A stretch of 64,000 nucleotides of DNA, taken from assembly GCA_050084515.1 (NCBI GenBank), contig CM114271.1:23250001-23314000 (forward strand), given 5' to 3'. Both the position numbers and the translations under genes were made by a program. The number at the start of each line of letters is the position of its first letter. Position 1 is the stretch's first letter. The notes under the pieces are model-generated. The model worked only from the letters and a program-made list of their open reading frames with translations. It was not told where the DNA came from and searched no databases. The DNA comes from Blasia pusilla (taxonomy: Eukaryota). Positions 1 to 55,164 of the stretch are shown piece by piece.

Positions 1-1757
1 AGACCGCCGCTACTCTTTTTGCCTTCACTCCTTTGTCACATCTGAGTAGCCGATAGGCCGAGATCTATCGTGGATAGGGCGTAGGAGCTAGCGGACTATC
101 TTGAGTGCAACTTTGTCCCACAGTGTCGGATGAGGTTGAGGATAGGTCCATTGTGTCAGAACGCGTCGTTTCGGCGACTTTCATGTTGAGGTCTTTTACA
201 GTACCGGGTGACTTGTGGACAGGTCACTGCCCCTGGTAACTGTCTTGCTTGAGTTACCAAGGAAGGGCTATTTTAGGGAAGAGCCTTTTGGCTCTTCCCA
301 ACCTATATAAGAGAGGAAGATGGCTTTCCTAAGCCATCTTTCTCATGTTGGGCCGTTGGAGCACCTCCCTTGTATGTGTGTGAGCTAGGACTAGGGTGCT
401 AGCGTCCGGATTCCTTGATAGCACAGGGTGGACGAGGCTCGATATGCCGATGTAGATTGAGGAGTGGAGTTTTAGGCCGGGTGTGCCGTTTTTACTACTC
501 GTTATTTTTACATGAGAAAGATGTTAGGGGGCTGGTGGGAATTCTTTGTTTGCAGGTAGGCAAACGAGTTGCCTTGGTCGGGAGCCCCTGGAGACGTGTG
601 TGTGACGTTGTGTGTCATTTTTTCTGTTCGGAAGGCCGTGGGCGGAAGCGCTGTCCATTTTTCTCAGATTTTTCTGGTGAGGATTGATGGGGGACAACAG
701 CCAAGTGTAGCGTGTGGTGGGGCGTCGGGTGTACGCAAGTAAGGGTGTCGAGAGAGAAGGAAAGGGCAGGTTTGGGTCTTGCAGCCGCAGGGGGCTGTCA
801 AGTAAAGACGGCTAGGTTAGGTCGCAAAGTTTAGGGTTAGGGCGCGGACGGCTGGGCGCGGACGGGCTGGGCGCGTGACGGCGTGATGGGCGCGTGGCAG
901 GGCGCGGACGCCTCCCCCTGCATTTAGGGCCCAAGGGGCCCGCATAGGGCCGCGGTCCAAGTTTTTTCCCCCTCTCCGACGTGGTAGCACCGACCATAGT
1001 CGGTCGGACGATTAGCTTGTCGATACGTGGTTGGCAGGACAGACGAGGTTAGTCGGACGAACGTGAGTTGAGATTTTCCGGACATGAGTGGGAGCCGACC
1101 AGGCTTAGTTACGTTACATACCGCGCGTGGGGATAGACAGAGGGGTTTGCGCGACATGATGTTTTGGGGTGCGACAGGGTTGCGAGAGTTTACGATGGAG
1201 GGGCAGTGTGCATGATGCCGACGGGTTGTCGCATCTGTTGACGGGAGGATCGACGTGTTGGTCGAGGGGAGTGTTATGTGGCGGAGATTTTCATATCATG
1301 TGGAGGAGTGCATATTGACGGTGAAGCAGGCTGGAGGGCGTAATCAGGTTACCCTTTCGAGTCCCTTTTCCCGCACTTGTTGTGTGTGATTGAGAGTGCT
1401 GGGTATCGGGTAGTAGCTGGTGCTAGATGGGTGCAATGATGGTGACGAGTGTAGATTCTTTTCATGTGTAGCATGTTGGTGGATATACGGCGGTTGCCAA
1501 GTAGGGGTCGCGTGTATGACCCGAGAGAGTGTCGCTAGGTTAGATGAGTCAGTTGGGAGGCTCATGGTGAGCCCGAGTGTTGAGCGTGCGTGATGCCGGG
1601 TATGTCATCACGGGATTGACGTTAGCATAGGTGAGCTAGTGAGGTGTGTGGGAGACTCTCGGTGAGTCTGAGTGCTTGAGCGGGTGAGACAGGGTTTGTC
1701 ATCACGGCGTTCTTCCAGGGTTCGGAAGAACGGGGTAGTGCGAGCAGTGGTAGTGGT

Positions 1758-3560
1758 GTGACATGGAGTGGAGTGAGATACCGAGGGGTTACTAGTGAGG
1801 AGCTCCCTCGACATCCATCCGTGACTGGATCGACATCACTGGACACTGGGTCTGGTGACGAGATCACCGACAGAGACAGTAGTACTTGGCAGGAGATGGA
1901 CGACATGGGCCATCGGGGCATGCGTCGTTTCTCGGGTGCTGTGGGCACCATCGACTTACATGATTTCATCCAGGAGTTCGACACATGGTGCGACTTCCAG
2001 GAGATACGGACCTCGACACGGTTCAACCCTTTCATGGCATGGAAGGGGTTGTTCCAGCATTTGGAGGGTCCTCCGATGGATGACTACATGGAGTTTCGAT
2101 CACTATATTCAGTAGAGAGATCGATGCCAATTTTATGAGGATGTATTGGGCTCCAGGGTATGTGTCCACTAGTGGTCGCGAGGCATATGATGGGATTGTG
2201 AGAGGAGAGAGACCCACACCATCAGCCTGGAGACTAGATGGAGAGGAGGGCAGTGAGACAAGCGATGTGGCGAGAGACCCTCGGTGGTAGAGGGCCACCC
2301 AACTTCAGCCCCAAAGTGGAGTTCTTCCGGCGGTTGGGGAAGAGCTACAGGCGTCACTGACCGACAAGTGAAGAGTCTCAGGATTTTCAGCGGCGATCGG
2401 GTGAGAGTCGAGAGAGGCCTTCACACGCATGAGGAGGCTGATCATTGCTACGTTTGGAGGATCGAGGCGCGATCGGTCCGATTGGTCTGGGTTCGGACCG
2501 AGAACTACGGAGGAGAGTCCGAGATGCGGCTTTGATTCACTCGGTGAAGCCCACATTGAAGGTGGTCTTTGAGTTGTCGGCGTATTGAGCTCAACATGAG
2601 TGAGAGCGGTAGTGACCGCTGGATTTTCTCGAGAGCAGACGGGTCCACGAGCGGCGGTGACCCACAGTGCCACACAAAGCACGAGCACCCATTCATGGAG
2701 CGGGCAGTGTGCCTAGAGAGCAGGGCGGGTACCGTGAGCCTATGAGGCAACGACCCACACCTACATATATTGCCCAGCAGGGACCGATGTGGTCTTGTTG
2801 GACGTGTGGAGGGGCCCATAGGCAGAGAGATTGCCCACAGCATGGGAGAGGACCACCAGCACCTCCGATTGCTCAGGAGCCACAGAGGATGGCCCCACCT
2901 GACACAGTGTGACCATTGCCCACAGATATGGTCACACTAGGGATAGATGTTTTGACCTTCGCCGAGGGGCACGTCTAGAGGTAGGCCGAGGGCCTGGGGG
3001 CGGTCGTCCTGGAGGAGGTCGGGGAGTTCTTCTTGGACGTGGTGGTAGAGGACCACCACCAGCCAGGGGAGATGGAGCAGGAGCACCAAAGCCGGCGCTT
3101 CTCTCACGCATCGATCAGTTGGAGCAGAGCATTGCTGCCATGACGATGATGCAGCTTAGGGAAGGCACGGAGCTGCGGCGGCTAGTGTGACTCGATATCT
3201 ACCTCTTACCCCGACCGGGTGAGGATCTCTCAATATGGGATTCATGTGTAGTGCGGCCCAGTTGAGGCAAATGCGATGGTGACTTGGGGTGCTGCGAGAG
3301 GCACCGAGCCATCGAGAGGTGGAGTTGAGATTGACCCACCAGAGGGGACCGATGGGCGGCAAGCCAGGGTTCCACAGTCGTTCACATTGTCGGAGGCACT
3401 ACACACACCATCGATGGTGCCTCGACGACCAGCGGTGCCTACAATTCAGGAACCTACGTCGACGTCACGAGGAGTTGGAGTGACAACTCCTATGATGGCT
3501 CGAGTGGAGTCAATGTCGACTATAGTGTTGGAGGTGGCCACTAGAGTGAGTTAGACTCCG
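1758..3560 (+). pseudogene. gag of copy 1 (frameshifted), two CCHC zinc knuckles
   Basis: RFSG...LHDFIQEFDTWC gag-like N-terminus; CWTCGGAHRQRDC at ~2797-2836; second CDHC..YGHTRDRC knuckle at ~2907-2950; RGG-rich tract follows. Confidence 0.8.
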
Positions 3561-4595
3561 CTATTTTCCGCCTTAGAGTTGGCGACGTTGGGAGTTGGAC
3601 CAGCTGAGGTGTTCTGGTTGGCCGCCACGTTGTGTGAGCGTGGAGAGATGACTGCTTCTTGTTCAGAGGTAGTTGAGGAGGTGGTGGACTTGCACTCAGA
3701 GCCGGTGCTTGGGACGTTCCCCACAGAGTCATGGCATGCGGCGGCGGCGAAGTTGGTAGATATGCCAGCTCGACCGGCCATAGAGCGGCGATGGTGACAC
3801 ACTGGAGTAGTGTTCTTTGGATAACCGAGTGAGTATTTCGCTTGGTTAGTCCGACGGGGACAGTATACCACCCGCAGCGCATCCTACTTGATTCAGGAGC
3901 GCAACCCTTGATGTTAGGGAAGGCGGCGTGTTTAGCGTTGGGGTTACGGAAGGCCGACATTGAGCCTTGTCCCTTCCAGATCTGAGACCTCGATTGGGCG
4001 TATCACCCACTCGATATATGACTCGACAGAGATTGTTCTCGAGTCCAACCGAGCATCGACGGATAGTGCTATGGTGCGACACGCGTGCGATTACGACACC
4101 AGGTGAGTGAGTAAATGCGATGTGTTGGTGGGGGAGTCTGGTGTTATATCCCCTAGGATTCATCCTTGACTTCTGGGAGGAGACCATTGCTTATCGGCCA
4201 GGATGGCGGTCAGGTGACGGCCGGATGAGTCAGTTACCCGTGCAGTTTGCGGGACGAGGTGGTCGATCACGAGGCGAGTCTATGACCATGTTGGCGGCTT
4301 TCACGGTAGTGTTATCGGCCAGGAGAATTGTTGGGGGAACACATGCGGAGGATGTCCCGATGGCGGATAGTCCCACGGAGAGACAGGCCATGGCGGGTGT
4401 CTCTTCCCATGTTAGCGATGCCTCTTCACCATTATGAAGTGCGACTCGAGAGCTCAGAGGAGTGCCGGCGACCTCGTGAGGCGGCGTGGAGTCATGTTTT
4501 ATCCCGAGCAGCGAGAGTCACGTGGCAATCGGGCTATTGGAGTGGAGACGATGACCCCACTAGATACCACACCTGTTGTGTGGCAGTGCCTAGAG

Positions 4596-5540
4596 GAGGG
4601 TGTTAGGGTGTTAGATCTCTTCGGAGGGATTAGCACCGGATTGGCGGCCATATTGCAGGCGAGCATACGGGTGCATAGTACCTTTTGTGGAGAGAGATGA
4701 GACTGCGGCGAGTATCACTACGTCACGTGGCGAGATTGGTCAGTAGGTATCCTAAGTTGTTGTCGGTATCTGCAGCACGGGGATACCAACATACGCTACC
4801 CGCCAACATATCTTTGGTGGGGGCGCAGGATCTGGATAGAGTTGGCACCATTCATTTGGTGATTCTTTGGATGGCCATGTCGGGTCATTCATCGGTTGGC
4901 CGAGGATTTGGATTGCGAGGATCCGAGGTCGGGGATGTTTTGGGAGATCTTTGCAAGTAGTACGACACTTGCGGAAGAGTCGATATGTTCTCCAAAGATA
5001 CATTTTGGAGAACGTGCCGTTGTTGGGAGATACTCGTGCACGTGTGATGACGAGTGTACATCGTGAGTCCTGGTTGGGACTGCTTTGTGTTGTTAGATGC
5101 GGCGAGAGTTGGGTCACGTGCCCATCGTCCCACGATTGTGGTGGGCGAACCGATACCATCGAGGTACCGAGTCGAGCCTACGGTGGAGTCCAGAGAGCAC
5201 CACATCTCACAGTGGATGCTATTTTGGACTCAGGGCGTCGATCTCAGGTGGTGACACGCGATGATAGACCAACGTTGGCCACGGCCAATAGGGTGGGGGA
5301 GTTGAGGGCAGCCTTACCTACGTTGATGAGCTTCCCAGCATCCCATGCCTTTCGTCAGGGAGGTCCACGCATGATTTGGGATGAAGTGACCGGAGTATTG
5401 GAGGAGCCTACAGCAGATGAGCGTGAGCGCGCCATGGGGTTCACTACTAGTACTACGGCGGTGTCAAGGATGACTGAGGCATCACGGAGACTGGTGTTGG
5501 GGCAGGCGATGGACCTCAATTGTCTCACATGGATATTCAG
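4596..5540 (+). pseudogene. DNMT3-like C5 cytosine methyltransferase domain of copy 1 (frameshifted)
   Basis: Motifs across frames: VRVLDLFGGISTG (I), GWPC at 4869-4880 (IV), YILENVP (VI), GSRAHRP (VIII), ERERAMGF (IX), LGQAMD (X). Confidence 0.9.
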
Positions 5541-6803
5541 CCTAGGTATGGCTGAGCAGAGACGGATGCGAGTGTCATCCATGCCGTCACGTCCACGAGT
5601 TGGACCACGCCATGTGGTGCATGACCGGCATTGGGGGCGAGACGAGGAGAGATAGGCACCCATGGACTTCCTGGGACGTCGTTTGAGCAGAGAGTGCGAA
5701 GGCGGCTAGAGTAGCACATGTTCATTTTTCGGATGTGGAGCATGGTATAGGAGGTCAGAGTGGAGTGGTTGTGGCGGAAGTGGCTAGGGTTGCTACATAG
5801 CAACCAAAGCCGGAGGTTGCGTCCTCTCCGAGTGAGGTCACGATGGAGACTTGGGAGCGTGTGATAGGTCTCAAGTTGACAGGAGGAGAGCGACGGCGAG
5901 TTCATAGGTTTCTGAGAGGGCATGTCAGTTGTTTTGCCTTCAGTATGAGAGACTTGGGTACGCTGAAGGGTCCCGGGATACGGATTGAGTTGGCTAGTGA
6001 TACGCCGATCTTTCGTCGACCCTACAGGTATTCTGATATGGAACGAACCTTGATTCATAGCAGGAGTCAGGACTTGTTGGAGGCAGGACTTGTGGAGTTA
6101 TCACATGGGGAGTATGCATGTGCCACAATCATGCTGGCAAAGAAGGATATGTATGGCAATTGGACGGATAGACGGATGTGTGGAGATTACCGTCCTATCA
6201 ATCGACAGACGAGGTCAGATCAGTATGCCATGCCTACTCCTGAGGAGATCTTTGATGCGGTAGGGCATGCAAAGATCTTCAGTACTTTAGATCTCCGTGT
6301 TGGCTATCATCAGCTTCCTATCAGGTTGGAGGACTGGGAGAAACGACGATGCGGGGATAGATCGGTTCGGGAGAGATTGCTTGTATCGATGGCGGTTCTT
6401 ACCATTTGGGTTGAAGAACGCGCTGCGGAGTTTCAGTGAGTGATGGATAGGATTCGGCTGGCTTGGATTTTTGTGCGATGTTACATAGATGATATTCTTA
6501 TCTTGATTCCACGGTTGAGGAGCATGAGCGACACTTGGAGGAGGTGTTTGGCGATTGCGTTACATGGACTGAAGTTACATCGAAAAAGTGCAGATTCTTT
6601 GAAATGCATTGAGTACTTGGGACACACCATATACCCAAGTGGGTTAGGCGTTCAAAGATCTGAAGGTAGAGGCATTGCAGATTCCACGCCCTACAGATGT
6701 GAGTCGAGTCCGAGCATTTTTTGGACTGGCGAACTTCTATCGACTGTATGTCAAGGGTTTTAGTGCGATCGCAAAGTCTTTGACCTTGTTGACGAGACTT
6801 GAT

Positions 6804-7211
6804 TATTGGATTCTCAACATCCACTCCTCTGAGCACCATTGATTTGATCGGCCCCCTTGTATGAGGAGAAGCCTAGATCGATGGTTCCAACTTAGACGTC
6901 GAAGGAGTCATAGTAATATGACGTAGGTGGTTTACGGAGTAGCGTTACTAGGTTTATCTAACCCTATATTGCATCAGAGTGCGGCAATTTTTTCTATTAA
7001 TAGAAACGAAGAAAAATAGGTTAAAACCCTAGTTTTCCCGAGTAGTCAAATAGTCGGGAGCCGCAGCGGTAGCGCATTCTCGTATGTCGAGTTATCTCCC
7101 AATTCAGGTTCCATCGAAGCTCTTCTGTGAGCGCACGGACGGACTAGGCCACTTTGTATCTCTAAGTTTTGTAAAGATTTAAGTGATTTCGTCACTTTCT
7201 GTTTTCTCACA
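6804..7211 (+). mobile_element. Solo LTR (copia-type) inserted between RT and RNase H of copy 1
   Basis: T(A)TTGGATTCTC...TCTCACA flanked by 5-bp TSD TTGAT (6799-6803 and 7212-7216). Homologous copies at 33214-33614 and 62853-62972 read TGTTGG at that end. Confidence 0.9.
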
Positions 7212-7251
7212 TTGATCAGGTGTGGTTGTGGGGAGATGATCAGGAGCAAGC

Positions 7252-7417
7252 ATTTCAGGAGCTCAAGGACATGTTGACGTCCTCACCCATTTTACAGAGA
7301 CCGGTTAGGGGTCGCCCATTCCAGTTACATACGGATTTCAGGAGCTCAAGGACAGGTTGACGTCCTCACCCATTTTACAGAGACCGGTTAGGGGTCGCCC
7401 ATTCCAGTTACATACAT
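7252..7417 (+). repeat. 83-bp tandem duplication inside pol of copy 1
   Basis: ATTTCAGGAGCTCAAGGAC...CCAGTTACATAC occurs at 7252 and again at 7335. Confidence 0.9.
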
Positions 7418-8149
7418 TGGAGCATGTTGGGTCTAGGAGCAGTGCTTACTCAGAGGGATGACAAGGAGAGGGAGTTCGTTGTGGCTTACGCGAGCCGATC
7501 GAACAACATTGCAGAGGCGAAGTACAGCTTCTACGAGGGAGAGTGCTTGGCTGTAGTGTGGGCCGTGGCACATTTTAGGTGCTATTTATTTGGCAACCCT
7601 TTCACACTTATCACTAATCATCAGCCATTGAGGTGGTTGATGGAGTCCGACAAGCTTACGGGAAAGCTTGCCAGGTGGGCTCTATTACTACAGGAGTATG
7701 AGTTTGAGGTGGTTCATAGGCCAGGTCGGATGAACCAGGATGCGGATGGGTTGAGTCATAACCCATGTCCGAGTCAGAGAGACGACACAGGAGCTCGATG
7801 GCACGGAGAGAATGATGAGGAGATGGTGCCCGTTTGGCATGCATCTACCTATCTTTGTTGGTTGACTATGGCAGGTTAGCCAGAGGTGATGACTCCAGTG
7901 GTGGGGTTGGATGATGAGTCTTTGGATCCGGAGGTCAGTGAGGAGGCGACAGGTGGTTGTGATATCCATGACGACGTGGAGGTTGTGGAGTTCTTGCGCA
8001 CTGGCGTCATAGCGAGCACAGTGAGTGCTAGGGAGCGGGACGGATCCTACAAAGAGCCAAGAGGTTCAGGTGGGAGGGGACTCACATTTTGCGGGTATGG
8101 GGAGATGGTAGGATACGAGTGGTACCTCATCCTTCCCAGCAAGCACGTG

Positions 8150-8874
8150 TAGTGCGACATGCCCATGAGGAGTTGGGACATTTCGGAGTAAAGCGCATTT
8201 TGACTTTTACTCCAGGTTCGTGATTGGTGGCGCGGCATGCATCTTTGGGTACAGCAATTTGTGGCCACATGTATGGTATGTGACAGTGACGAGCATCCTT
8301 CAATGAAGGTTTATTGAAGCATCCTTCAATGATCCCACTGAAGGATTACATCCTTTGCACCCTAAACGATTATGGGTTTAGGTTATCGGTGGAGTTTAGA
8401 CTTTGCGGGACCTTTGCCATTGACAGGGCGTCATCATAGGTACGTGTGGGTCATGGTGGAGCATTTCTCCAAGTGGATAGAGTTGGTGGCACTACCAGAT
8501 AAGGCGAGCGAGGGAACAGCTTATGCAGGCGGCACCCACGACGCTAGATGTCACTGAAAGGCGCACGATCCTACGTGTGCACGAGGTATTACCGACCGGA
8601 GTCCTCATGTTGGAGGGACGGGATGGTATGGTTTGGAAGGATCATTTGCGCAATTGTGCGCCATGTCATCTTCCGAACGTAGATGGGACGGTGGATCCGA
8701 GCTTGGCAGTGGTACCTGCCAGCTGGCTTGAGGTGTATGTTGTGCGGATCTGCGAGGGGTGGAGCCACCATGTTGGTATGTGATGGTTGTTCTCGAGGGT
8801 GGCATATGTCATGTCTGACCCCCCCTCTTGATGTGGTTCCCACGGGACGATGGATGTGTCCGAGATGTGTATAG
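8150..8874 (+). pseudogene. Integrase (core deleted) with C-terminal PHD finger, copy 1
   Basis: HEELGHFG...WW.GM...C..C and SLDFAGP. Relative to copy 2, about 0.5 kb is missing at ~8525. Intact C4HC3 PHD CMLC...CDGC...WH..C...PP...W.CPRC at 8734-8868. Confidence 0.9.
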
Positions 8875-9088
8875 GGTAGTAGGTCATGTCAGAGAGATGT
8901 GATATTTTCTATCTGGAGTTAGGGGGATCCAACTGTCAGCTAGGGGGGCGGTTGTGTGATCTCCATGTATATGTATGAGTTAATTTTTGTACATGTGTGG
9001 ATCAACCCGTGTGTGGGGAAGATTGGTGTTGTGTGGTGTAGATGTGACGAGCGATGTATGTTGTGTAGCGATATGTATGCGCACGACA

Positions 9089-34800: not shown

Positions 34801-35059
34801 TATATAATTAAAAGAGGATGGGGTTAGAGAAAACCTTTCGTGATGTTGACACCTATCCTCCGAGGGTTCTTCTGGTGTTGAAAATTTTCAATTTAAGAGA
34901 GGGACTTAAGTTAAGAGGAGACAATTAAATTAAACTAGGAAAGGAAAGGAGGACCAGAGGTGCTAAATTGGATTTTTTTTAATTTGAAGATCACCGGTGC
35001 ATAGCACGCCCGTGCTACCTCTAGTTGCCCGTGCTAAACCCTCCATGAACTCTCTACCC

Positions 35060-37139
35060 TCATCCAACATGATGATGAGGGTAGAGAGTTCATGGAGGCT
35101 TACGCTAATCGCTAAAAAAATGTTGCAAAGGTGAGGTACAAGTTGTATGAGGATGAGTTCTTGGTTGCAATGTATGCTACTAGGCATTTAAGAGGTTACC
35201 TATTCGAAAATCACTTTACCATCATTATTGATCCAAAAATCTTACATAAAAGCTTGCTAGGTGGGCTCCGTTGTTGCAGGAGTATAATTTCCAAGTGGTA
35301 CATCAATCTAGGATGCTCAATAAGGATGCACATGGATTTAATGAGTTGAGTTGTAATTTATACATGAATCAACATGATAAAATTGGAGCTCGTTGGCATG
35401 GATAGAGTGATGAGAAGATGATTCTGATTGGTACGTATTAGCCTATTTGGGTTTGTTGGCTATAGAGAAGCCAAAGTGTTAAGACCTCAATGACGAGGTC
35501 CAATTGAGAGTCATTGGATGCAAAGGATAATGAGGAGGCCAAATATGGTGGAGATATCCATGATATTGGTTGCAAGCACAATGGATTCCAGAGAGTGGGA
35601 TCAGATCTTATAGTGAGCCAAATGGTTTCGGTGAGAGGGATCACATGTTTTGGGAGGATGGTAGAGTGCAAGTAGTCACTAGTGCTTCATCCTTCACAAA
35701 GAGCACGATTGGTACAACTTGCCCATGAGGAGTTGGGACACTTTAGAGTGAAGCGAACGTAAAACTTACTCCATATACAATAGCACTCGCGAGTCACGCA
35801 GACTAACGTCCAATAATTTGTTGCTAAATACATGGTGTGTGACCGAATCCAAACACAATTCAATGCTCCGACTCAATACTAGCATCAACTATCTATCAAG
35901 CACGTCTCAAAGTGAATAGAGTTGGTTGCATTGCTTGAAAAAGTGAGTGAGGAAGTAATGCATGGTCTAGATTGAGTCACTATGGTGCATCAGATGAGGT
36001 GTTGATGGACTAGGGTATATAGTTTTGCAAAAAGTTTTAGGCCTTATGTGATCATGTACTAATCAACCACTACAGTACTTTGTGAGATCATCATGAGGTA
36101 GATGGATTGACAAAGAGAGTTGTTTAGACATTGAAGAGGGATTTGCCCAAGTATGGCTTGTAGAGAGATTAGCTACGAGATTGGGATCTACAATTTTCGT
36201 GGTTAGTAATGGGATACTGAATCCACAAGCAAGCATCCTTCTCACCTTACTTGATGTCTTTATGGTTGAGAGCTTGATTTACCTATGGCAATTCATTGTG
36301 ATGTTGGTAGGTTTTGAACCTCGATGACCTTGATATATCGATGCAAGCATGCTCTCAAAGGGCTAAGTTGCTTTATTGCTAATTTGCAGCAATAGCCAAG
36401 TTCCACCACCCTTTTGCACATCAATCACATACTAGCATAGTGGTTGCATCTCAAGTAGATCCACACTATATGAAACGTAAGACTTGGGTCGATGGATTTT
36501 CCCAGATCTTCATAGAGAAGGTATTATATAGGTAGTCATAGATCTAGACTTAAGTTAGTGATATGGATGATAAGAAAATGACTAACGATGGGACTACATG
36601 AGCACACAACCTTTTTGCTCTTAGCGTCCTAGAGATGTGTGTCATGATAAGTAGGGAAAGATGATTTTTAGAAGTTAGAGGGACCTAAACATCAACTAAA
36701 AGGGTGATTGGAGATATTTTGGTAAATGATGGTCTAAGTATTCAGATGCTATGAGTGAGTATGATATCATGTGTGCATATGCTTGTAGTTAATAACAATA
36801 ATGTACTATATCGATGTTTGTGCACATAATAACTATGACGTTCTTTGAGGATCGATCAATGAGTATTTGTAGGGGCCTTTAAGAAGAGTGGAGGTCAACC
36901 TCAAGAAGTTAAAGATGACTTGTGGATGCCTTAGGTAACCTAAGAGAAGGTTCCCCCTTTGTTTTGGTTCATTTTGAGTTATATTTAGAAACTTACTAAT
37001 ACAAGTAAATTCCCATTAGAAGAATAGTTGACTTAAAATTTTGGGAAGTGGTCCTTGACTCCTACAACAAGTCAAGAGCCAATGAGATAACCGACAAGAA
37101 CAAGTTAAAGTGGAGAGAGCTTGGGAGAGGGAAGGGGTA

Positions 37140-37184
<45 letters not shown>

Positions 37185-37492
37185 TGGAGCTCATTCTTTT
37201 TTTTTTGAACCTCTTGGCATGAGTCAATTGAGCTATCGGCCTTCTTACCTTGTGAGTAACCCAAGCCTATCATTAGGAGAGTGGGTTTGGTTTAGAGAGT
37301 GAATTTGGTTTGACATGAAAGAGAGATGGAGATTGTGCAAGAGATTGGAGTACTTTTGATTTAAATGGAGATATTTTGGTATAAAATCGTCTCAGTCTTG
37401 ATCAGACATGAGTGAGTATAGTATCTTATGTGTATCTACTTGTAGTTAGTGACAACGATATATGTTGTATAGTGATGTGTGTGTATATGACA
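35060..37492 (+). mobile_element. Old decayed 3' half of the DNMT-gypsy family: RNase H, integrase and B-A-B tail
   Basis: Nucleotide homology to copy 2 from 52328 onward; B 36707-36831, A 36834-~37363, B ~37364-37492 ending TATGACA. Confidence 0.85.
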
Positions 37493-39250: not shown

Positions 39251-39944
39251 TTTTGTGCGTATACACATCGCTACACAACATATATTGTTGTCACTTATCA
39301 ACACACACAAATGCTAGCCTAATTCAATCATCTATCAAATATGATCATGGAGGCAAGTTGTCATCAAAATATCTCCAATATAATAGATGAAAAATCTCAA
39401 ACAACACAAAAAGAGCTCCATGGCTCTCATGCACATTGTCTTTTTCTCTCTTGTTAAACCAAACCCATTCTCATGGTGAGAGGATGGGGTTACTCACAAG
39501 GCAAGAAGCACCATAACTGCGCCGCCTCATACTCAAGAGGTTCAACAAGGAGAGTATGAGCTCTCCAAGCTCACTCTCCTTGAGATATACCTCTCTCCCC
39601 AAGTCCTCCTCACAATCTTCCTCAAAGTCTTTCCCAAAGTCCTCAATTCCGTCCTTTTCAAGGTCTTCTTCACAGTGCACCAAATTCACCAATTGACCTA
39701 AAACCTACAATAGTGGATCAAGAGCTACCTCCCGTAAATAGAAATTTAAAGCTCATATAATTGGGAAACTTACTTGAAATAGTAAATTACTCATATGACC
39801 TCCAAATAGATTTACACAAAGAGGAAACCTATTATAGTACGTTATCCTACTCCCTAGCAAGTCATCCATGACCTTTTGGACTCCGCCTCTAATCTCTACC
39901 AAAGCATCCCACAAAAACTTCGTTCCACTGTAAAAGACGTGACA
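39251..39944 (-). mobile_element. Solo A+B terminal unit of the DNMT-gypsy family
   Basis: The minus strand starts TGTCACGTCTTTTA (39944) and ends in the B segment (ATTGGAGATATTTTG...GTAGCGATGTGTATACGCAC). Confidence 0.85.
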
Positions 39945-40646
39945 CACAAAATTTAAATAAATACGTTTTACTAACATCGGCCCTCTATAAATACGAGTAA
40001 ATTATAATTTTTCCCCATCCTAAATTTGCTCTAATTTGGCTTCTTACTCCACTAAGCCCCACAAATCTTGTGTCAACTCTCATCAAATAAACTTTTAACC
40101 TAATGGCCTCCAAATAACAAGTTTTCCTAGAGTATCCATAAAAAAATAAAAAGTTTATTTTACTTTTCTACATTTCTCCTAAAGAGTTACCCAAAAAATT
40201 CAAAATTGCTCATTCTCATGCTGACTATGGTAACCCTTGCGAACAAATATAAATTTACACTCAAGCATCAAAATCCATTATTTTTTTTACAGTGTTCATA
40301 ACATCTTGATCTGAAATGGTACTTAAATTCTATTAAAAAAGGTTTAGCACTTTTTTGCGTTTCTCTTTTGCTCGAAAAATCCACACAAAATATACACAAC
40401 TAGGTAGCTCTTGCTCTCGTGAACATTCTTGTGAACCATTGAATGGGGAACATTGTCCCCATTTTGAAAATTAGCAAACACCCAACAAGCTCTTGCAGTT
40501 TAGAGCTCTCATTCCATCATTCTCTCTTTGTAAGTCAAAAGCACTCCAATATCTCACACAACCCCCATCTCGTTCTCATGTCAAGCCAAACCCAATTTCT
40601 TAATAAGAGGCTTTGATTACTCACAAAGCAAGTAAGACCATAACTC

Positions 40647-40648
<2 letters not shown>
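39945..40648 (-). mobile_element. Older 5' portion of the DNMT-gypsy family: end of A joined directly to the leader
   Basis: 40518-40536 reads CTTACAAAGAGAGAATG on the minus strand, matching the A/leader junction at 46402-46419; 40441-40470 matches 46464-46496. Confidence 0.7.
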
Positions 40649-40851
<203 letters not shown>

Positions 40852-45864: not shown

Positions 45865-46406
45865 TGTCACGTCTTTTAGGATAGATCGGTGGGATCTAAT
45901 AGAGCGCCTTCATGAGTAATGGAGGACACGCCCAGTAGGTCGAGGGTGACCTGTTGAGGCCCTTGGAAACCTGAGATAGTAGGTTTCCCCTTCGTTTCGG
46001 CTCATTTGGAGCCATATTGAAGAACTTACTATTTTAGGTAAGTACCATTTTGAATATATGATCGACTTACTATTTTTGGTAAGTGGCCCTTGACCTCCTA
46101 CCTTGACGCGTCTCGGTTTCACCTCACTAACTGCGTCAAGAGCCAAGGAGGTGACTTGGGAGAATAGGTTACCATGGAGAGAGCTTGGGAGAGGGGAGGG
46201 GTATACCTCAAGGAGAGAGAGCTTGAGAATTCATTCTCTCTTTGTTGAACCTCTTGGCATGAGGCGGCGGAGCTATGGTACCTTGCCTTGTGAGTGTAAC
46301 CCAAGCCTCTCATTAGGAGAGAGGGTTTGGTTTGACATGAGAGAGAGTGCACACCTTTGAGAGCTATGGTGTGAGATGGTGTAGAGAGAGATTGGATCTT
46401 ACTTTA
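45865..46406 (+). repeat. Terminal repeat A1
   Basis: Direct repeat of 54511-55037, with scattered substitutions and a ~30-bp indel; followed by the leader, not by B. Confidence 0.95.
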
Positions 46407-47567
46407 CAAAGAGAGAATGAGAGAGTGAGAGAGCGTCATGGGGGAGCTCGCTGGTCACTCGCTGTTTTTGCAGGTTGGGGACCGTGTTCCCCGTTCAGAG
46501 GCTCATGGGAGTGCTCATCGGAGCAAGGGCTGCTTTGATTATTCTTTGCATTTGCTGATTTTTCATGTGGAAGAGTGGCGCGCGGAAGCGTTGCCCAATT
46601 GTTGATAGGGATTGAGTATGGGGGCGGGTTGCCCCATGCTGATTTGTATTTTTACAGATGTTATATTTTCGTTGGGAGAAATCAGTGCGGGAGCGTTGTC
46701 GAATTTTGTGTAGGAGAAAGAGACATTGGGCTTTACGACAGTCCCCGTTAGTTTTTACTGAAATGTCCGATTCTAAATATTTTTTGATGCTGGTGTAGAT
46801 CGTGAAGCTGTGCACGTTGTGCAACAAACAATGCGCAATTTGGAGCTGCGAGCAAAAAGTTATGGTCAATCTTGTAAAGTTGCAATTGCTAGGCGATTTT
46901 TAGGGTTAAATTGTGCAAACCCTAAATCAGCCGCCACACCGGCGGCGGCCGTCGCCATCATAGTCACCGTCAACGGTCAACCATCAACCTTCACCTTCGA
47001 TGGTCAACCATCACCGTCAGCGTCAACCGTCACTGTCAACGGTCCACCGCCCATTGTCCACCCTTTGGGTGCCATTGCCGTCATTACGGAGTGGAGGGTC
47101 TTCCACGACGTTCGTTGAGTCCTTAACTTGCGTCGCCACCATGTACTTTGTTTTGGCCGCCACCGTCATCGCAGTTTCTTCATCAATCAGTGGTGGCAGA
47201 TGACCTCCGGTTATGGTGTTTGAGTTTTGATTTCATGTTGCTATGTTGTGATTGGTAGCCGCTCGACGACGATCGAGTATCGTGCCGTGACGCCCGTAGT
47301 CGCAACGCGCCGCCGATTGCCGCGCCGTGCCGCTCGTGGCCGCACCGCACCGTCTCGATCGCGGAGCCGCACCGTCATTGTGGAGCAGAGTGTGGGTTTA
47401 TTGTTGATTGAGGAGAGTATGCCGCCGAGTGCCGCATCCCATCATCGAGGGCCGTGCCGTTCGTAGCCGTTCCGTGCCGCCTACAACGCCGCACCGTTCC
47501 ACTGGGACCGCATTGTCTATCGAAGAGTTTTGAGCAGCGTCAGTACGGGAGGAGTATGACTTGCTGA

Positions 47568-48740
47568 TTGGAGGAGTTTTCTACTAGTGACGTTTTAGGA
47601 GGGATCACTCGCACGGGAGCAGTTGCACCGTCTAGTCGGGTTCGTCCCGGGTTCAACCGTGTGGTTGAGTTCTTTGCTGAGTTGAGGGCGAGCTACCAGG
47701 GGTTACGGACGGGGAAGTTGCGGAGCATCCATGACTTCCAGAGGCGTCCGGGTGAGAGTTTGCGTGAGGCTTACACTCACTTGCGCCGGTTGATCAACGT
47801 CACTTAGGGGGTGACAGAGGCTCAGGCTATCCAGTCATGGTACGCGATGTTGGACCGGACCCTGCGGACACGGGTGCGGGAGGGGTTGCTTCTTATGAAC
47901 ACCTCCCCTACGTTGAGAGATGTTTTTAGGACCGCCGAGAACATTGAGCGCAACATGGCGGAGGAGAGCGTAGCCACCATGGGTTCTCGGGCGAGAGCGA
48001 TCCACGATTTATCCGCACCACCTATGCAAAGCAACGTGGACTCGAGATAGGTCGGCGTGGCACCACGAGCTCGGGGAGGATACCGGGGAGGCCGTGCCAC
48101 GAGACTGCGCCTTCATATGCGGCTCGGCCAGCGGCCGCCTACTATTACTTGTTGGTCATTGGTGAAGCCCATCATCAACACGATTGCACTCGTCAAGGTC
48201 ATGGGCGTGTGCCTCAAAGATGGAGGAGGAGATGGTGCTTTGCACCAGGGAGGTTATCTGTGTGACTATTGTCGAGGTATGGTCATACACGCCGGAGGTG
48301 TTTTAGTTTACATCCTGAGTTACGTCCGGACCGAGGGCCAGAGAGGGCACCAGATCGAGTAGCCGGTCCGGGTGGGCCTAGAGATCGTGCACCCCTGTTG
48401 GGAGACGAGGAGCTGGAGTTGCCGAACAGGGTGGTGGAGCTGCCCGTGGAGGAGGTAGAGTACCACCACCTAGACGCGCCGAGGGAGACGCCGGACGTGA
48501 GGCTGGGATGATCTTTGAGATATAGCGACTCTGGGGAGCAGATTGCCGCTATGGCATTGAGGTTACCCGATGCCGGATCCGTGACATCGACATCATATGG
48601 AGCATCCAGAGATTTGGAGGATCCTGGATGGATGTGCGGGGTTGCCCAGATGGAGGCCGCCGAAGTTGTGACGCGTGGAGCAGCCGCAGAGTTGGATCCA
48701 CAGCGAGGGGAAGCCAGAAGACAGACTAGGCTTCCTTAGT
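47568..48740 (+). pseudogene. gag of copy 2
   Basis: FQRRPGESLREAY (retrotransposon gag motif); degenerate CCHC knuckles at ~48149 and ~48260. Confidence 0.8.
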
Positions 48741-49053
48741 CTTTCACGTTGTCCGAAGCGATGAGGACCCCATCGATGGGTCCTCATCAAAGTTCGTGGA
48801 GAGTTGGTGATGTTGTTGGTGTGCAGACACGAAGGGCGATGGGAAAAGCGAGTGCGACGACTCTATTGTTGATGCTCATGAGGGGCATGTGTCGAGCATG
48901 ACGTTGGGGGGTACGCCCGCCGAGGCTTTTCGGCTGGCCGCTTCACTATGTGAGCGCGGAGTTGGATTTCTGCATCACGTTCAGAAGTGATGGCAGAGGA
49001 GGTGATGGACCTGCCCTTGGAGCGGATGCTAGGGCCGCCGCCCACGCCGATTC

Positions 49054-51117
49054 ATGGTAGGTCATGCGGTCGCTAGGATGGCGGAGATGCCCGCTAGATC
49101 CGCGATAGAGCGTGCCATGGCTTCTCCTGGTGTTGTGTTGTTGGATAACCGAGGAGAGGTCTTCCAGTTGGTGAGTCCTGGAGGTAGAGCTTTTAGTCCG
49201 CAGCGCGTCTTGTTGGATTCACGAGCACAACCCTTGATGTTGGGGAAAGCGTCATTTAGAGGATTGGGCTTGACGAGAGCCGATGTGGAACGTTGTCCAT
49301 TCCGGATCCAGACATCCTTGGGTGGAGCGAGTACCACACAGTATATCACCCGACAAGAGGTCATGGTGAGGATTCTCCCGGGACATCCTACAGATGAGTC
49401 CGTGGTGCGCGCCAAGGCGATAGTGACTGATGTTGAGTCCTACGACGTCTTGGTTGGTGGAGCAGTGTTATATCCGATGGGGTTTTCCTGGATTCTTGGG
49501 AGGAGTCGGCCCTATAGACCAGGATGGCAGTCAGGTGATGGGCGCCTTAGCTCATTACCCGTTCGATTCACAGGTGCAGTGATCGAGCAACGGCCAGGAG
49601 AGATGGCGACCTTAGCAGCATTTAGCAATGCCATCACTTGGCCTAGTGATTTGATTGAGGGACATGTCCATGCAGAGGATAATCCCGTTCCTGACATTTC
49701 TATGGAGAGGAGTGTTATGGGAGCTGCATCATTCCGTGGAGGAGAGGTGCCGCTGTGGGGCTCGACTGAGGAGCTCCAACGATTGGCAGATGAGCACGTG
49801 CAGATCGCGTGGAGCGAGGCGTTTGCACCAGAGCGTGACGGGTCTGAGGAACCCGAGGTAGCAGGGAGTGCTACGATGACACCCTTGGATACCACACCCA
49901 TTGTGTGGTGTACCCCGGAGGAGGGTATTCGAGTGTTAGATCTCTTTGGAGGGATTAGCACCGGGTTAGCTGTTTTGCAGGCAAGAGTGCGAGTACAGCA
50001 ATACCTGTATGTGGAGAGTGATGATGTTGCGAGGCGCGTCTCACTACGACATGTGGCGCAATTACGCCTACGTTTTCCCGACTTATTGTCTGCGTCCGCA
50101 GTACAGGGGTACCAGAGTTCCCTACCGAGGGATATTTTGTTGTTGGGGGCGCAGGACTTAGAGCGGGTAGGGACCATTGATTTGGTCATTTTCGGTTGGC
50201 CATGTCAGGGCCAATCGAGTGTAGGACGAGGCAGCGGGTTGGCTGACACTCGGTCCAGGTTGTTTTGGGAGATGTTGAGGGTCTTACGGCAGTTGCAGGA
50301 GCACCAGTCTCGTTCTCTAGCCTACATTCTGGAGAATGTGCCGATCTTAGGAGACTCCATGTCACGGGTCGTGACAAGTGCTCATCAGGTGCGTGCCCGG
50401 ATCGGCCCAGCAGTGTTCTTGGATGCGGCGAGTGTAGGTTCTAGAGCCCATCGCCCGCGTCTATGGTGGACCAACTTGGTGCCCCATGCGGTGTTATGGA
50501 GGGCGTATGCGAGAGTGGAGCGCCCCTCCCCTTTGTTAGTGGATTCCATTCTCGATCCAGATCGTCGATCACAGGCAGTGAGGCACGATGATCGACCACC
50601 GCTGACTGTGGTCAATAGGGTAGGCAGGCCGCGGGCAGCCTTGTCCATGTTTGTGAGTTTTCCCGCTTCCTATGCATACAAGGAGACCGGTCCTGGCTTG
50701 GTTTGGGATGACGAGGTTCAGCGGTTGGTGGAGCCCAACGCCGACGAGAGAGAGCGAGCGATGGGATTTTCCACAGGAGTGACGGCAGTACCATCAGTGT
50801 CAGAGGCATCACGACGCCATGTCTTGGGTCGGGCGATGGACCTGAATTGCTTGACATGGATCCTCAGCTTGGGAGTGGCTGAGCAGCGTCGTATGAGATC
50901 GCGACATATCACAGCGGTTGCGTTGGTGAGCCCCATGCCTACCGAGATGGTGGAGGTGTGGGGGGCGAGGCGAGACCGAGGAGATCTACGCACTAGGGGA
51001 GATCGGGAGAGACACCCTTGGACTTCTTGGGATGTTTTGAAGGTACGCAAGGAGATGATAGCCACACCATCAAGCGTGGTTTCGGGCACTGCACGTGGAG
51101 GAGATCAGAGTTTGTAG
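49054..51117 (+). CDS. pol segment: aspartic protease fused in frame to a DNMT3-like C5 cytosine methyltransferase (MTase ~49921-50870)
   Basis: LLDSRAQP at 49216 (DSG in copy 1); RVLDLFGGISTG, YVESD, DLVIFGWPCQGQS (PC at 50200-50205), YILENV (50332-50340), RAHRPRLWWTNL, ERERAMGF, SRRHVLGRAMD, all in one open frame. Confidence 0.93.
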   Translation: MVGHAVARMAEMPARSAIERAMASPGVVLLDNRGEVFQLVSPGGRAFSPQRVLLDSRAQPLMLGKASFRGLGLTRADVERCPFRIQTSLGGASTTQYITRQEVMVRILPGHPTDESVVRAKAIVTDVESYDVLVGGAVLYPMGFSWILGRSRPYRPGWQSGDGRLSSLPVRFTGAVIEQRPGEMATLAAFSNAITWPSDLIEGHVHAEDNPVPDISMERSVMGAASFRGGEVPLWGSTEELQRLADEHVQIAWSEAFAPERDGSEEPEVAGSATMTPLDTTPIVWCTPEEGIRVLDLFGGISTGLAVLQARVRVQQYLYVESDDVARRVSLRHVAQLRLRFPDLLSASAVQGYQSSLPRDILLLGAQDLERVGTIDLVIFGWPCQGQSSVGRGSGLADTRSRLFWEMLRVLRQLQEHQSRSLAYILENVPILGDSMSRVVTSAHQVRARIGPAVFLDAASVGSRAHRPRLWWTNLVPHAVLWRAYARVERPSPLLVDSILDPDRRSQAVRHDDRPPLTVVNRVGRPRAALSMFVSFPASYAYKETGPGLVWDDEVQRLVEPNADERERAMGFSTGVTAVPSVSEASRRHVLGRAMDLNCLTWILSLGVAEQRRMRSRHITAVALVSPMPTEMVEVWGARRDRGDLRTRGDRERHPWTSWDVLKVRKEMIATPSSVVSGTARGGDQSL

Positions 51118-51213
51118 TTGGCTGCAAGAGAGCGGCCGAGTGTTGTTGTTCGAGACGGGGTTGCACCATAGCAACCACCGATACCCGCGCCGGAGAGTCC
51201 TACCGTAGTCACG

Positions 51214-52709
51214 ATGGAGACTTGGGAGCCAAATATGGGCCCTAAGTTGACAGGAGGAGAGTGGCGCCGAATACATCAGTTCCTCAAGAGTTATAGGAGC
51301 TGCTTTGCGTTTAGCATGGAGGATTTGGGTACGCTGAAGGGACCGGGGATCCGCATTGAGTTGTCGAGTGATATGCCGATCTTCCGGCGACCCTACAGTG
51401 CTGATGATATGGAGAGGGCTCTGATTCAGAGTAGGAGCCATGACTTGGTCGGAGCAAGACTAGTGGAGATGTCGCATGGGGAGTATGCATCTGCCATTGT
51501 CATGCCCGCCAAGAAGGATGTGCATGGCAACTGGACGGATAGGCGGATGTGTTGGGATTACCCACCTATCAATCGGCAGACGAAGTCCGATAGGTATGCC
51601 ATGCCCACCCCTGAGGAGATCTTTGATGCGATTGGTCACGCAAAGGTCTTTAGTTCATTGGATTTGCGAGCCGGATACCATCAACTACCTATCATTGGAG
51701 GACAGGCAGAAGACGGCATTTTGGGGCATCGATCCTCACGGGAAGGATTGTTTGTACCAGTGGCGGTTCTTACCATTTGGATTAAAGAACGCCCCGGCTG
51801 AGTTTCAGAGGGTCATGGATAGGATCTTGGCTAGTCTGGATTTTGCTAGGTGTTATATTGATGACATCGTAGTCTTTAGCGCCACGGTTGAGGAGCATGA
51901 GCAACATCTAGAGGAGGTGTTTCGACGATTGCAATTACATGGGCTGAAGCTACATCTAGGCAAGTGCAAGTTCTTCTACGACCAGATTGAGTACTTGGGT
52001 CATTCGATATACCCAGGGGGCCTTGGTGTTCAACAGACGAAGGTAGAGGCTATCTCACGCATTCCACATCCTACAGATGTGAGCCGTGTTCGCGCATTCA
52101 TGGGATTGGCGAACTTCTATCGGCGATACGTCAAGGGATTGATTCGATTATGGCCACTGACCTTGGTGACCAAGGTGGATCACGAGTGGCACCTTTGGGG
52201 ATGAGTAGGAGCGAGCATTTCATTGCTCAGGACAAGTTGGCGTCGCACCCATCTTGAGGAGACCGATCGGGCGTCCTTTCGATTGCACCGATTGGAGCAT
52301 GTTGGGGCTTGGAGCGGTGCTCACCCATCATGATGATGAGGGTAGAGAGTTCGTGGTGGCTTACGCTAGCCGCTCAAACAACGCTGCAGAGGCGAAGTAC
52401 AACTCGTTTGAGGGTGAGTGCTTGGCTGCGGTGTGGGCTGTCGCGCATTTCAGATGTTACTTATTCGGAAACCCCTTTACCATCATCACTGATCATCAAC
52501 CACTAAAGTGGTTGATGGAGTCCGACAAGCTTACAGGGAAGCTTGCGAGATGGGCTCTGTTGTTGCAGGAGTATGATTTTCAGGTGGTACATAGACCTGG
52601 GACGCTCAACCAGGATGCAGATGGGTTGAGTCATAACCCATGCCCGAGTCAGCGAGATGCAATTGGAGCTCGATGGCATGGAGAGAGTGATGAGGAGTCG
52701 GTGCCATGA
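51214..52709 (+). pseudogene. RT and RNase H of copy 2 (frameshifted)
   Basis: FSSLDLRAGYHQ, PFGLKNAP, CYIDD (51851-51865), YLGH; TDWS..GLGAVL, ECLA, TDHQPL, ADGLS. Confidence 0.95.
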
Positions 52710-52733
52710 TGGCACGCGTCAGCCTATTTAGGC

Positions 52734-54201
52734 ATGTTGGCTATGGAGAGCCAGAGTGTGGAGACTTCGATGGCAAGGTCTAGTGGAGAGTCCTTGGATC
52801 CCGAGGCCAGTGAGGACACGACAAGTGGCCGAGATATTCATGATGATGGAGTAGTCTTAGAGTACCTTCGTACTGGCAGCCTTGCGAGCACCATGGATGC
52901 TAGAGAGCGGGATCGGATCCTACAGCGGGCCATACGGTTCCGTTGGGAGGGGACAAATGTTTTGAGAGTTTGGGAGGATGGCAGAGTACGCGTAGTGCCG
53001 CATCCTTCACAGAGAGCACGACTAGTGCAGCCTGCCCACGAGGAGTTGGGTCACTTTGGAGTGAAGCGGACGTATAGCTTGCTCTAGATTCAGTATTGGT
53101 GGCGAGGCATGCAGACTGACGTTCAGCAGTTTGTTGCCAGGTGCATGGTGTGATCGGGTCCGAGCATCGTTCAATGCTCCGACTCTACAGTTGCATCCAT
53201 TATAGATCATGGGCTTAGGGTATAGATGGAGTTTGGATTTTGCAGGACCTTTGCCCTTGACGGAGCGTCACAGTCGTTATGTGTTGGTGATGGTCGAGCA
53301 CTTCTCGAAGTGGATCGAGTTGGTTGCATTTCCTAACAAAGCGAGTGAGGGAGTAGCTTATGCCTTCCTTGACAGAGTGTTGAGTCATTATGGCGCACCG
53401 GATGAGGTGTTGACAAACCACGGTACCGAGTTTCGCGGTGAGTTCCAGGCCTTGTGTGATCAGGCGCTGATCAACCACCGTACGACTTCGCGAGATCATC
53501 CTGAGGCGGATGGATTAGCGGAGAGAGTTGTGTAGACAGTGAAGAGGGATTTACGCAAGTATGGCTTGCAGAGAGGTCACCTAGGAGATCACCGTACTTG
53601 CTACTTTATGGCCGAGAGCCAGATTTACCTGCGGCCATTCGTCGAGATGCTGGTGAGGTACTGAACCTTGATGACCCAGATGTATGGGTGCGAGCATGTT
53701 CTCAGAGGGCTGAGTTATTTCGGAGAGTGATGCCCATGGCGTTCGAGAACTTGGCGATTGCACAAGATCGGGATACGTTGAGGTATGCGACTATTCGAGG
53801 TGGTGGTTATCGACCAACTATCCGGAGGTTTCATCAGGAGATTATGTCTACTTGCGGACAGACGGCACCGCAGCGTTGGAATGATCTGCAGGCGCACTAT
53901 CCTGAGAGTGCGTGACATTTTGCCATCGGGTGTTCTCTTGCTGGAGGGACGCGATGGTATGGTATGGAAGGACCATGTGCGTAATTGTGCGCCATGTCAC
54001 CTTCCTAACATTGATGGTATAGTAGATCCGAGCTTAGCAGTAGTTCCTGCAGGCTTGCGTTGTATGTTGTGTGGTTCTGCCCGTGGTGCGGCCACGATGC
54101 TAGTCTATGATGGGTGTTTGAGAGGATGGCATATGGCATGTTTGACGCCACCTCTCACTAGGGTTCCTCAGGGACGATGGATGTGTCCCAGATGTACATA
54201 G
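52734..54201 (+). pseudogene. DDE integrase with C-terminal PHD finger (54061-54195), copy 2
   Basis: HEELGH...CMVC zinc finger; SLDFAGP; LTNHGTEF (second Asp mutated to Asn); GLAERVV; PHD with one Cys-to-Tyr change. Confidence 0.93.
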
Positions 54202-54369
54202 AGAAGGTAGTTCTACATTCCGACTTGTGTCTGTGACATGGATGACAAGGAGGCGACTAACGATGGGGCCACATGAGCACCCGGCCTTCTTGCTCTAGCG
54301 TCCGAGAGATGTATGTCATGGTAGGTAGGGATAGATGGCTATCTGGAGTTAGAGGGACCTAACCACCAA

Positions 54370-54380
54370 CTAGGGGGGCG
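54370..54380 (+). promoter_or_regulatory. Polypurine tract
   Basis: CTAGGGGGGCG, identical in copy 1 (8940-8950), directly before segment B. Confidence 0.75.
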
Positions 54381-55164
54381 ATTGGAGATATTTTGGTACG
54401 TCTTGTCTCGTTGTTTGGATGCCATGAGTTAGCATGGGATCATGCGTGTTTGTGTGTGTGTTAGGTGACAGCGATGTATATTGTGTAACGATGTGTATGC
54501 GCACGACAGTTGTCACGTCTTTTAGGATAGATCGGTGGGATCTAATAGAACGCCTTCATGAGTAGTGGAGGACACGCCCAGTATGTCAAGGGTGACGTGC
54601 TGAGGCCCTTGGAAACCTGAGATAGCAGGTTTCCCCTTCGTTTCGGCTCATTTGGAGCCATATTGAGGAACTTACTATTTTAGGTAAGTACCATTTTGCA
54701 TATATGATCGACTTACTATTTTTGGTAAGTGGCCCTTGACCTCCTACATCAGGTCAAGAGCCAAGAAGGTGACTTGGGAGAATAGGTTACCATGGAGAGA
54801 GCTTGGGAGAGGGGAGGGGTATACCTCAAGGAGAGAGAGATTGAGAGCTCATTCTCTCTTTGTTGAACCTCTTGGCATGAGGCGGTGGCATGAGGCGGCG
54901 GAGCTATGGTACCTTTCCTTGTGAGTGTAACCCAAGCCTCTCATTAGGAGAGTGGGTTTGGTTTGACATGAGAGAGAGTGCACACCTTTGAGAGCTATGG
55001 TGTGAGATGGTGTAGAGAGAGATTGGATCTTACTTTATTGGAGATATTTTGGTACTGCTTGTCTCGTTGTTTGGATGCCATGAGTTAGCATGGGATCATG
55101 CGTGTTTGTGTGTGTGTTCGGTGACAACGATGTATGTTGTGTAGCGATGTGTATGCGCACGACA
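54381..55164 (+). repeat. 3' terminal block B1 (54381-54508) - GT - A2 (54511-55037) - B2 (55037-55164)
   Basis: B1 and B2 are 128-bp direct repeats ATTGGAGATATTTTGG...GCGCACGACA; A2 repeats A1. Confidence 0.95.

Follow-up and report, generated by a model that had tools for sequence, protein, structure and literature searches.

A retrotransposon of Blasia pusilla combines, in one element, an integrase that ends in a PHD finger and a DNMT3-like methyltransferase that is separated from the reverse transcriptase (RT) by a conserved in-frame stop codon. The window, the whole stretch of 64,000 nucleotides that we analyzed, holds three copies of this family (Table 1). The domains of the element follow the order gag, protease, DNMT, RT, RNase H, integrase, PHD; its gag-protease-RT-RNase H-integrase order, DDE integrase, TG..CA ends, and target duplication are those of a Ty3/gypsy element. 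We postulate, with somewhat more confidence than doubt, that the integrase PHD tethers integration to nucleosomes via the unmodified end of histone H3 and that the DNMT, behind a probably leaky stop, acts separately on cDNA. The finger would bind the H3 end at Ala1-Arg2, with integration mildly biased away from H3K4me3 chromatin; the DNMT would methylate the element's cDNA inside the particle, independently of the PHD; and readthrough of TAG-CAA-CCA would yield an RT-integrase-PHD product.

Table 1. Retrotransposon features in the window (positions are those of the 64,000-nucleotide stretch)
Feature	Position	Strand	Remarks
Copy 1, second subfamily, reduced form A-internal-B	34..9088	+	Target duplication CCTT; stop TAG-CAA-CCA at 5798
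PHD finger of copy 1	8734..8868	+	Eight zinc ligands
Copy 2, older partial relative	35053..37483	+	RNase H-integrase and B-A-B end
Copy 3, whole element A-internal-B-A-B	45865..55164	+	Ends TGTC...GACA; 4-bp target duplication TCTT
Repeat A1, left end of copy 3	45865..46406	+	
Predicted self-primer segment within A	46231..46244	+	Complementary to the primer-site position
Primer-binding-site position, immediately after A1	46407..46420	+	Pairs with 46231-46244; no TGG tRNA-type site
gag remnant	47646..48056	+	54% identity to Marchantia P0010
Aspartic protease motif	49210..49230	+	LLDSRAQ in copy 3; LLDSGAQ in copy 1 at 3884
DNMT3-like C5 methyltransferase	49924..50892	+	DLFGG 49939, WPCQ 50197, LENV 50329, HRPRL 50449
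Conserved in-frame stop TAG-CAA-CCA, predicted readthrough site	51169..51177	+	Between DNMT and RT
RT and RNase H	51208..52706	+	YIDD 51854, TDWS 52287
Integrase	53037..54060	+	H2C2 53037; core motifs 53233, 53413, 53518; second Asp is Asn in copy 3
Integrase GPY/F-like SPYLLLYG	53589	+	Followed by predicted beta-rich C-terminal domain and linker
PHD finger closing the integrase frame, copy 3	54061..54198	+	Third zinc ligand Tyr
Polypurine-tract-like G run, immediately before B1	54372..54380	+	
Repeat B1	54381..54508	+	
Internal junction GACA-GT-TGTC	54505..54514	+	Holds the sequences of both element ends with 2 bp between them
Repeat A2	54511..55037	+	
Repeat B2, right end of copy 3	55037..55164	+	

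The coding region of copy 3 is decayed by stops and frameshifts, one of which lies between the integrase core and the C-terminal domain. Copy 1 has lost most of the integrase core, and its PHD is not in the frame of the domain upstream. The fusion of integrase and PHD is not clean in either of these window copies; in another natural copy (L003), a single frame of 604 codons encodes RNase H, H2C2, rve, and PHD. No PHD match was found in copy 2 at an E value of 1e-5. The window also contains, on the reverse strand, an inverted family fragment with a DNMT end and RT (15765-16872, ~91% identical to copy 3) and inverted A/B repeat fragments (39255-39598 and 40406-40647) next to an array of 8- to 10-bp tandem repeats (40593-40894). 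A 729-codon frame on the same strand (28390-30579), with an F-box (PF18511) and a weak LRR match, is probably a host gene amid the retrotransposon copies.

The copy 3 finger, which is directly followed by a stop codon, matched PF00628 at 37.2 bits (E = 3e-9; Pfam cut-off, 24). It keeps seven of the eight zinc ligands and is damaged, because the third, Cys3, is replaced by Tyr. The copy 1 finger has its full set of ligands and scored 49.2 bits, which bears out the original prediction of a PHD at the integrase C terminus that is intact in copy 1. All eight C4HC3 ligands were present in 22/28 and 20/20 parsed top-scoring copies of the two subfamilies. Between the PHDs of these subfamilies (28 by 20 copies), dN/dS was 0.077 (pS, 0.60; pN, 0.086), and the finger is under purifying selection; within-subfamily values were set aside because the copies had been chosen by protein similarity. 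The PF00628 scores and this selection exclude a chance motif, and a host PHD gene or nested fragment is excluded because 119 of the 120 relatives listed carry the PHD and integrase in one frame (Pfam). In an AlphaFold model, the PHD was predicted confidently (mean pLDDT, 83); the model gave no reliable packing (pTM, 0.44), and its beta domain had no fold match among the matches listed.

PHD fingers of the ING type, which read H3K4me3, carry a cage Trp two residues before the His. The element PHD lacks this Trp, as had been predicted: the position is Gly in copy 3 and in 138/149 related PHDs, and Trp is not among its common residues. The closest solved structures are CHD4, PHF12, DPF2/3, KDM5A/B PHD1, PHF21A, and AIRE, and placement of the finger in the cage-less KDM5-PHD1/DPF/CHD4/BHC80/AIRE class holds at the level of sequence; the predicted fold points to that class too. 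The finger and KDM5B PHD1 align without gaps (E = 8e-14). In KDM5B PHD1, L325, P347, G349, and W351 form the pocket for H3 Ala1, D328 binds Arg2, and D308 bonds unmodified Lys4 (PMC4225485). The element PHD shares the absence of a cage and keeps equivalents of all of the Ala1 and Arg2 residues. It differs at D308 (Ala), Y310 (Leu), and E321 (Ala or Gly), and the residues before Cys1 are PAGLR, with no acidic residue of the D308 type. Of 149 related PHDs, 49 have an Asp at the third position ahead of Cys1, 145 have Asp or Glu right after Cys3, and every one has Trp or Phe as its last aromatic. The net charge is +2 and +4 in the two local PHDs, versus a median of -4 in relatives (the 98 of 120 that were parsed by the pattern).

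These residues make binding of the PHD to the H3 end (Ala1-Arg2) plausible. Since the Lys4-binding Asp is absent, strict reading of H3K4me0 is doubtful, as is any discrimination at H3K4 by the PHD in this lineage. The proposed likeness to readers of unmethylated H3K4 thus survives in part: the class and the Ala1/Arg2 residues agree with it, and specific K4me0 reading does not fit the Ala/Gly replacements of D308 and E321 or the basic domain. One survey found H3 binding for only 31 of the 123 PHD-containing constructs that it tested (PMC6979384), a point against the tethering explanation. We also noticed an extra Cys about 27 codons before the PHD (APCHLP), usually followed by His, in 149/149 PHD-bearing relatives (P0051-P0276). 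It is absent from PHD-less Closterium rows and is possibly a further zinc or packing site.

Because the integrase-end query contained the PHD, an RT-only search was run as a less biased test. Among the named relatives, proteins of Marchantia polymorpha are nearest; others come from Calypogeia, Sphagnum, Coleochaete, and Closterium and from the algae Chlamydomonas, Haematococcus, Tetrabaena, Pleodorina, and Hariotina. No Klebsormidium-named protein was among the matches listed in the protein searches. In an RT-RNase H tree of 202 rows, built by a quick method with a midpoint root and few reference chromoviruses, all PHD- or DNMT-bearing rows fell in one clade of 139 rows (SH-aLRT, 99), which makes the pairing of DNMT and PHD ancient. 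The single chromodomain (PF00385) among 120 RT matches listed lay outside this clade; this and the separate RT clade exclude membership in the chromoviruses. DIRS/Ngaro membership is excluded by the presence of rve and H2C2 and the lack of any tyrosine recombinase family in the scanned frames.

Within the clade, a 12-row subclade that includes Closterium lacks the PHD (8 rows with complete ends) and has a DNMT in 9 rows, and a 4-row subclade has the PHD with no detectable DNMT. Volvocine members carry the PHD and a DNMT without catalytic residues; in one Chlamydomonas reinhardtii protein of the clade, CHLRE_09g398141 (P0092), the DNMT that lies between RNase H and integrase is degenerate. Some relatives encode a G-patch domain (PF01585; P0070, P0073, P0075, P0136, P0167, P0169, and L177:6118-11835). 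P0307, a member of this eukaryotic clade, is annotated as cyanobacterial, probably through a binning error.

The family is abundant. A first-subfamily search of the genome (390 Mb, 26 contigs) returned 11,196 first-look candidates; the 150 that were scored had 86 to 100% identity and were scattered over the large contigs. A search with the second subfamily, to which copy 1 belongs, yielded 9,154 candidates, with a possible overlap between the two sets. The family made up ~18% of the sequence (28,660 of 160,000 bases) in 16 stretches of 10 kb that were chosen arbitrarily. Paired repeats inside one copy diverge by ~2%, and no long intact polyprotein frame was present in 20 fetched copies.

Exact 4-bp target duplications flank 34 of the 36 copies with both ends and show no strong sequence preference. 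Insertions lay within the own family at 4/35 sites versus 83/400 background windows (P = 0.27); when all repeats in the fetched DNA were counted, the figures were 15/35 and 172/400. A second set of sites, partly overlapping the first, gave 7/46 and 21/46. We saw no repeat enrichment or depletion at these sites, no own-family targeting, and no sign of heterochromatin homing. The sites are AT richer than background (GC, 0.375 versus 0.44; P = 1e-5), which selection could equally explain, and gene avoidance is not distinguishable from selection in these data.

One alternative is that the PHD is no longer an H3 reader in this lineage and has become a structural or a DNA- or protein-binding part of the integrase, perhaps engaging the internal junction described below. 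The basic surface, the loss of two acidic contacts, the extra upstream Cys, and the lack of repeat bias at insertion sites are consistent with such a role. We consider it unlikely, given a nearly invariant Ala1 pocket and Arg2 Asp and the fact that the Closterium-containing subclade dispenses with the finger. A second alternative, that the PHD binds H3 after integration and sets or shields chromatin on the new copy without choosing the site, would fit copies spread along all large contigs and sites with background repeat content. It seems more improbable still, as the fusion to integrase parallels chromodomain targeting (PMC6317226); the AT-rich sites also count against it, with the reservation about selection given above.

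The methyltransferase is DNMT3-like by sequence. Its domain matched PF00145 (E = 1.2e-9), and among solved structures DNMT3A (E = 2e-9) was ahead of bacterial enzymes (1e-3 or weaker) and DRM2 (0.07 or weaker); an ESM Atlas search returned PF00145 clusters only. Copy 3 retains motifs I, IV, VI, and VIII, and 121 of the 132 DNMT domains examined retain the catalytic Cys, Glu, and Arg. A DNMT accompanies the integrase-PHD in 101 of the 120 long proteins listed by a search with the integrase-PHD end alone, whose length filter favors proteins with an insert. The predicted partnership of the PHD with a DNMT3-like enzyme is thus upheld. The DNMT occupies the RNase H-integrase interval in 97 relatives, including named chlorophytes, and precedes RT in 3. 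Where it adjoins integrase (P0052-P0170), its catalytic motif is most often EC, not PC (Glu in 76/132 domains), and many of these proteins have 100 to 500 further residues C-terminal to the PHD.

Copies 1 and 3 have the same stop, TAG-CAA-CCA, between DNMT and RT. Of 40 copies examined, 35 were parsable; 33 of these had a stop in this interval, and CAR-YYA followed the stop in 29. In two distant metagenome relatives, the stop reads TAG-CAG-TTA (L129) and TAG-CAA-TCA (L130), and in L129 a protease-DNMT frame lies upstream of the stop and an RT-RNase H-integrase-PHD frame downstream. Closer metagenome relatives mostly have TAR-CAA-CCC, a partial match to the readthrough motif. UAG-CAR-YYA is the readthrough motif of tobacco mosaic virus (PMC3159437). 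The stop is probably leaky, and its conservation suggests that the DNMT is a Gag-level product and that integrase-PHD is made only via readthrough.

The original prediction went further and joined the two domains in a reader-plus-writer kit that could steer insertion away from active promoters, a steering for which the insertion sites give no support. In the coupled form of this reading, the PHD would read H3K4me0 and bring or license the DNMT at the insertion site, like the ADD domain of animal DNMT3. This is the least probable of the readings that we weighed: the frequent co-occurrence of the domains, and the 97 relatives in which the DNMT could stay fused to integrase-PHD, speak for it, and the stop that parts DNMT from RT-integrase-PHD in this genome and near relatives, the loss of either domain without the other, and the missing Lys4-binding Asp speak against it. 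A coupled kit may still hold for relatives with the DNMT beside integrase. In the element itself, the PHD and DNMT are likely two independent tools. Our preferred explanation, nucleosome tethering by the PHD and a separate action of the DNMT on cDNA, has to be weighed against the missing D308 and E321 equivalents, the basic PHD, insertion sites without repeat bias, and the absence of one form of copy that is described below.

The element does not have two equal terminal long terminal repeats (LTRs). The layout A-internal-B-A-B was found in 24/30 copies of the first subfamily and 11/20 of the second, of which the remaining 9/20 are A-internal-B; the A and B sequences are strongly divergent between the subfamilies. 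At the B1-A2 junction, the two ends of the element stand 2 bp apart as GACA-NN-TGTC. Among the 55 of 80 metagenome loci examined, many of which were too short or had no junction, we also found GACA-NN-TGTC in relatives and GGCA-GC-TGCC in L172 and L178; L131 and L156 have the full repeat layout and 4-bp duplications. Variants specific to a copy are shared by its B1 and B2. Where A2 meets B2, the sequence is that of the A1 end run on into the B1 start, apart from small indels in some copies.

A G-rich tract lies directly upstream of B1. The sequence right after A1 is complementary to 14 to 15 nt within A in both subfamilies, which differ in the sequences concerned. In the second subfamily, the self-complementary segment of A starts ~20 nt past TATATAA. 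The predicted stem has a folding z score of -3.3. Among metagenome relatives, the complementarity is clear in L131 (17 nt; 0/500 shuffles) and weak in L156 (10 nt; 3/500), and it was not found in L123, L189, or L201, in the last of which A2 is cut by the contig end. A tRNA-Met primer site was rejected; the best match to the motif had 3 mismatches in 12 and lay inside the coding region.

The repeats, internal junction, 4-bp duplications, and self-complementary primer site suggest a self-primed cDNA that integrates from an internal site. Such a cDNA would carry a terminal repeat B-NN-A, its ends would be joined to each other, and the integrase would cut the internal GACA-NN-TGTC junction at points 2 nt apart, giving ordinary processed ends. 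A joined circle should also yield A-B-A-internal-B copies, and none occurred among 48 left ends. A circle whose two junctions are equal and randomly cut, which predicts many such copies, was rejected on this count (0/48). B stood upstream without a preceding A in 2/48, each 9 to 14 kb downstream of another left end and thus likely tandems, and the A start was missing at 1/49 loci. We also observed longer forms, namely, B-A-B-A-B (L017:1-1319) and apparent tandems that share a B-A unit (L204 with L205 and L206 with L207).

The closest described element is KnitGypsy-Dnmt3 of Klebsormidium nitens, with which we compared ours by description only (PMC5890265). Both have Gypsy domains, an intronless DNMT3-related domain, a streptophyte host, and DIRS-like A-coding-B-A-B repeats, and in ours the catalytic residues of that domain are conserved. 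The K. nitens DNMT is described within the Pol frame, and in our element it lies in the same frame with the conserved stop between. "PHD" had no matches in the text and supplementary files searched, and land-plant copies, self-priming, an internal junction, and readthrough are not described there (PMC5890265). That DNMT had no activity in yeast, a result its authors call inconclusive, and cDNA methylation has been proposed for DIRS elements (PMC5890265). Gypsy-7a_cRei and REM1 of C. reinhardtii, which we likened by description, are Gypsy elements with a PHD of proposed targeting role and composite LTRs; unlike in our element, no DNMT is reported for them (PMC9940879). Gypsy-7a_cRei, with its PHD and a 2.6-fold excess of intergenic insertions, is a precedent for the proposed tethering (PMC9940879).

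Chromoviruses, including the self-priming Tcn1/Tf1-Sushi group, likewise carry a reader at the integrase C terminus, and the predicted self-priming resembles that of Tcn1 (PMC6317226). Our element has a PHD where they have a chromodomain, belongs to a separate RT clade, carries a DNMT, and has atypical repeats. EpiLTRs also are LTR elements that pair a histone reader with DNA methyltransferases; they combine a chromodomain, DAM, and a DNMT4-related enzyme and are stated to be distinct from streptophyte Gypsy-DNMT3 elements (bioRxiv 10.64898/2026.05.21.726589). Retrotransposon PHDs are known and have been called widespread (PMC6673714; bioRxiv 2021.11.30.470311; PMC8557442), and the text of the standard plant LTR survey mentions neither this lineage nor a PHD. 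Our literature search, which covered mostly listings of papers, found no paper that unites DNMT3, integrase-PHD, and repeat layout or that reports the family in land plants.

We tentatively speculate, with less belief than doubt, that a green-plant-wide gypsy lineage (chlorophytes, Coleochaete, Closterium, Sphagnum, and liverworts) self-primes, methylates its cDNA through a Gag-level DNMT3, joins the cDNA ends, cuts the palindromic GACA-NN-TGTC, and uses an H3-reading PHD that replaces the chromodomain. This might be a third route by which LTR elements integrate, and the lineage would be to the PHD what chromoviruses are to the chromodomain. If this is right, the reports of a DNMT3-gypsy in Klebsormidium and a PHD-gypsy in Chlamydomonas would describe one ancient lineage that forms a major part of a land-plant genome. 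The repeat anatomy would offer a concrete mechanism for DIRS-like repeats on an element with a DDE integrase. LTR finders that require equal terminal repeats would misread copies of the element, and bryophyte DNMT3 gene counts may include them. Marchantia carries the family, so that both the targeting of integration by a retrotransposon PHD and the role of a retrotransposon-borne DNMT3 become testable there.
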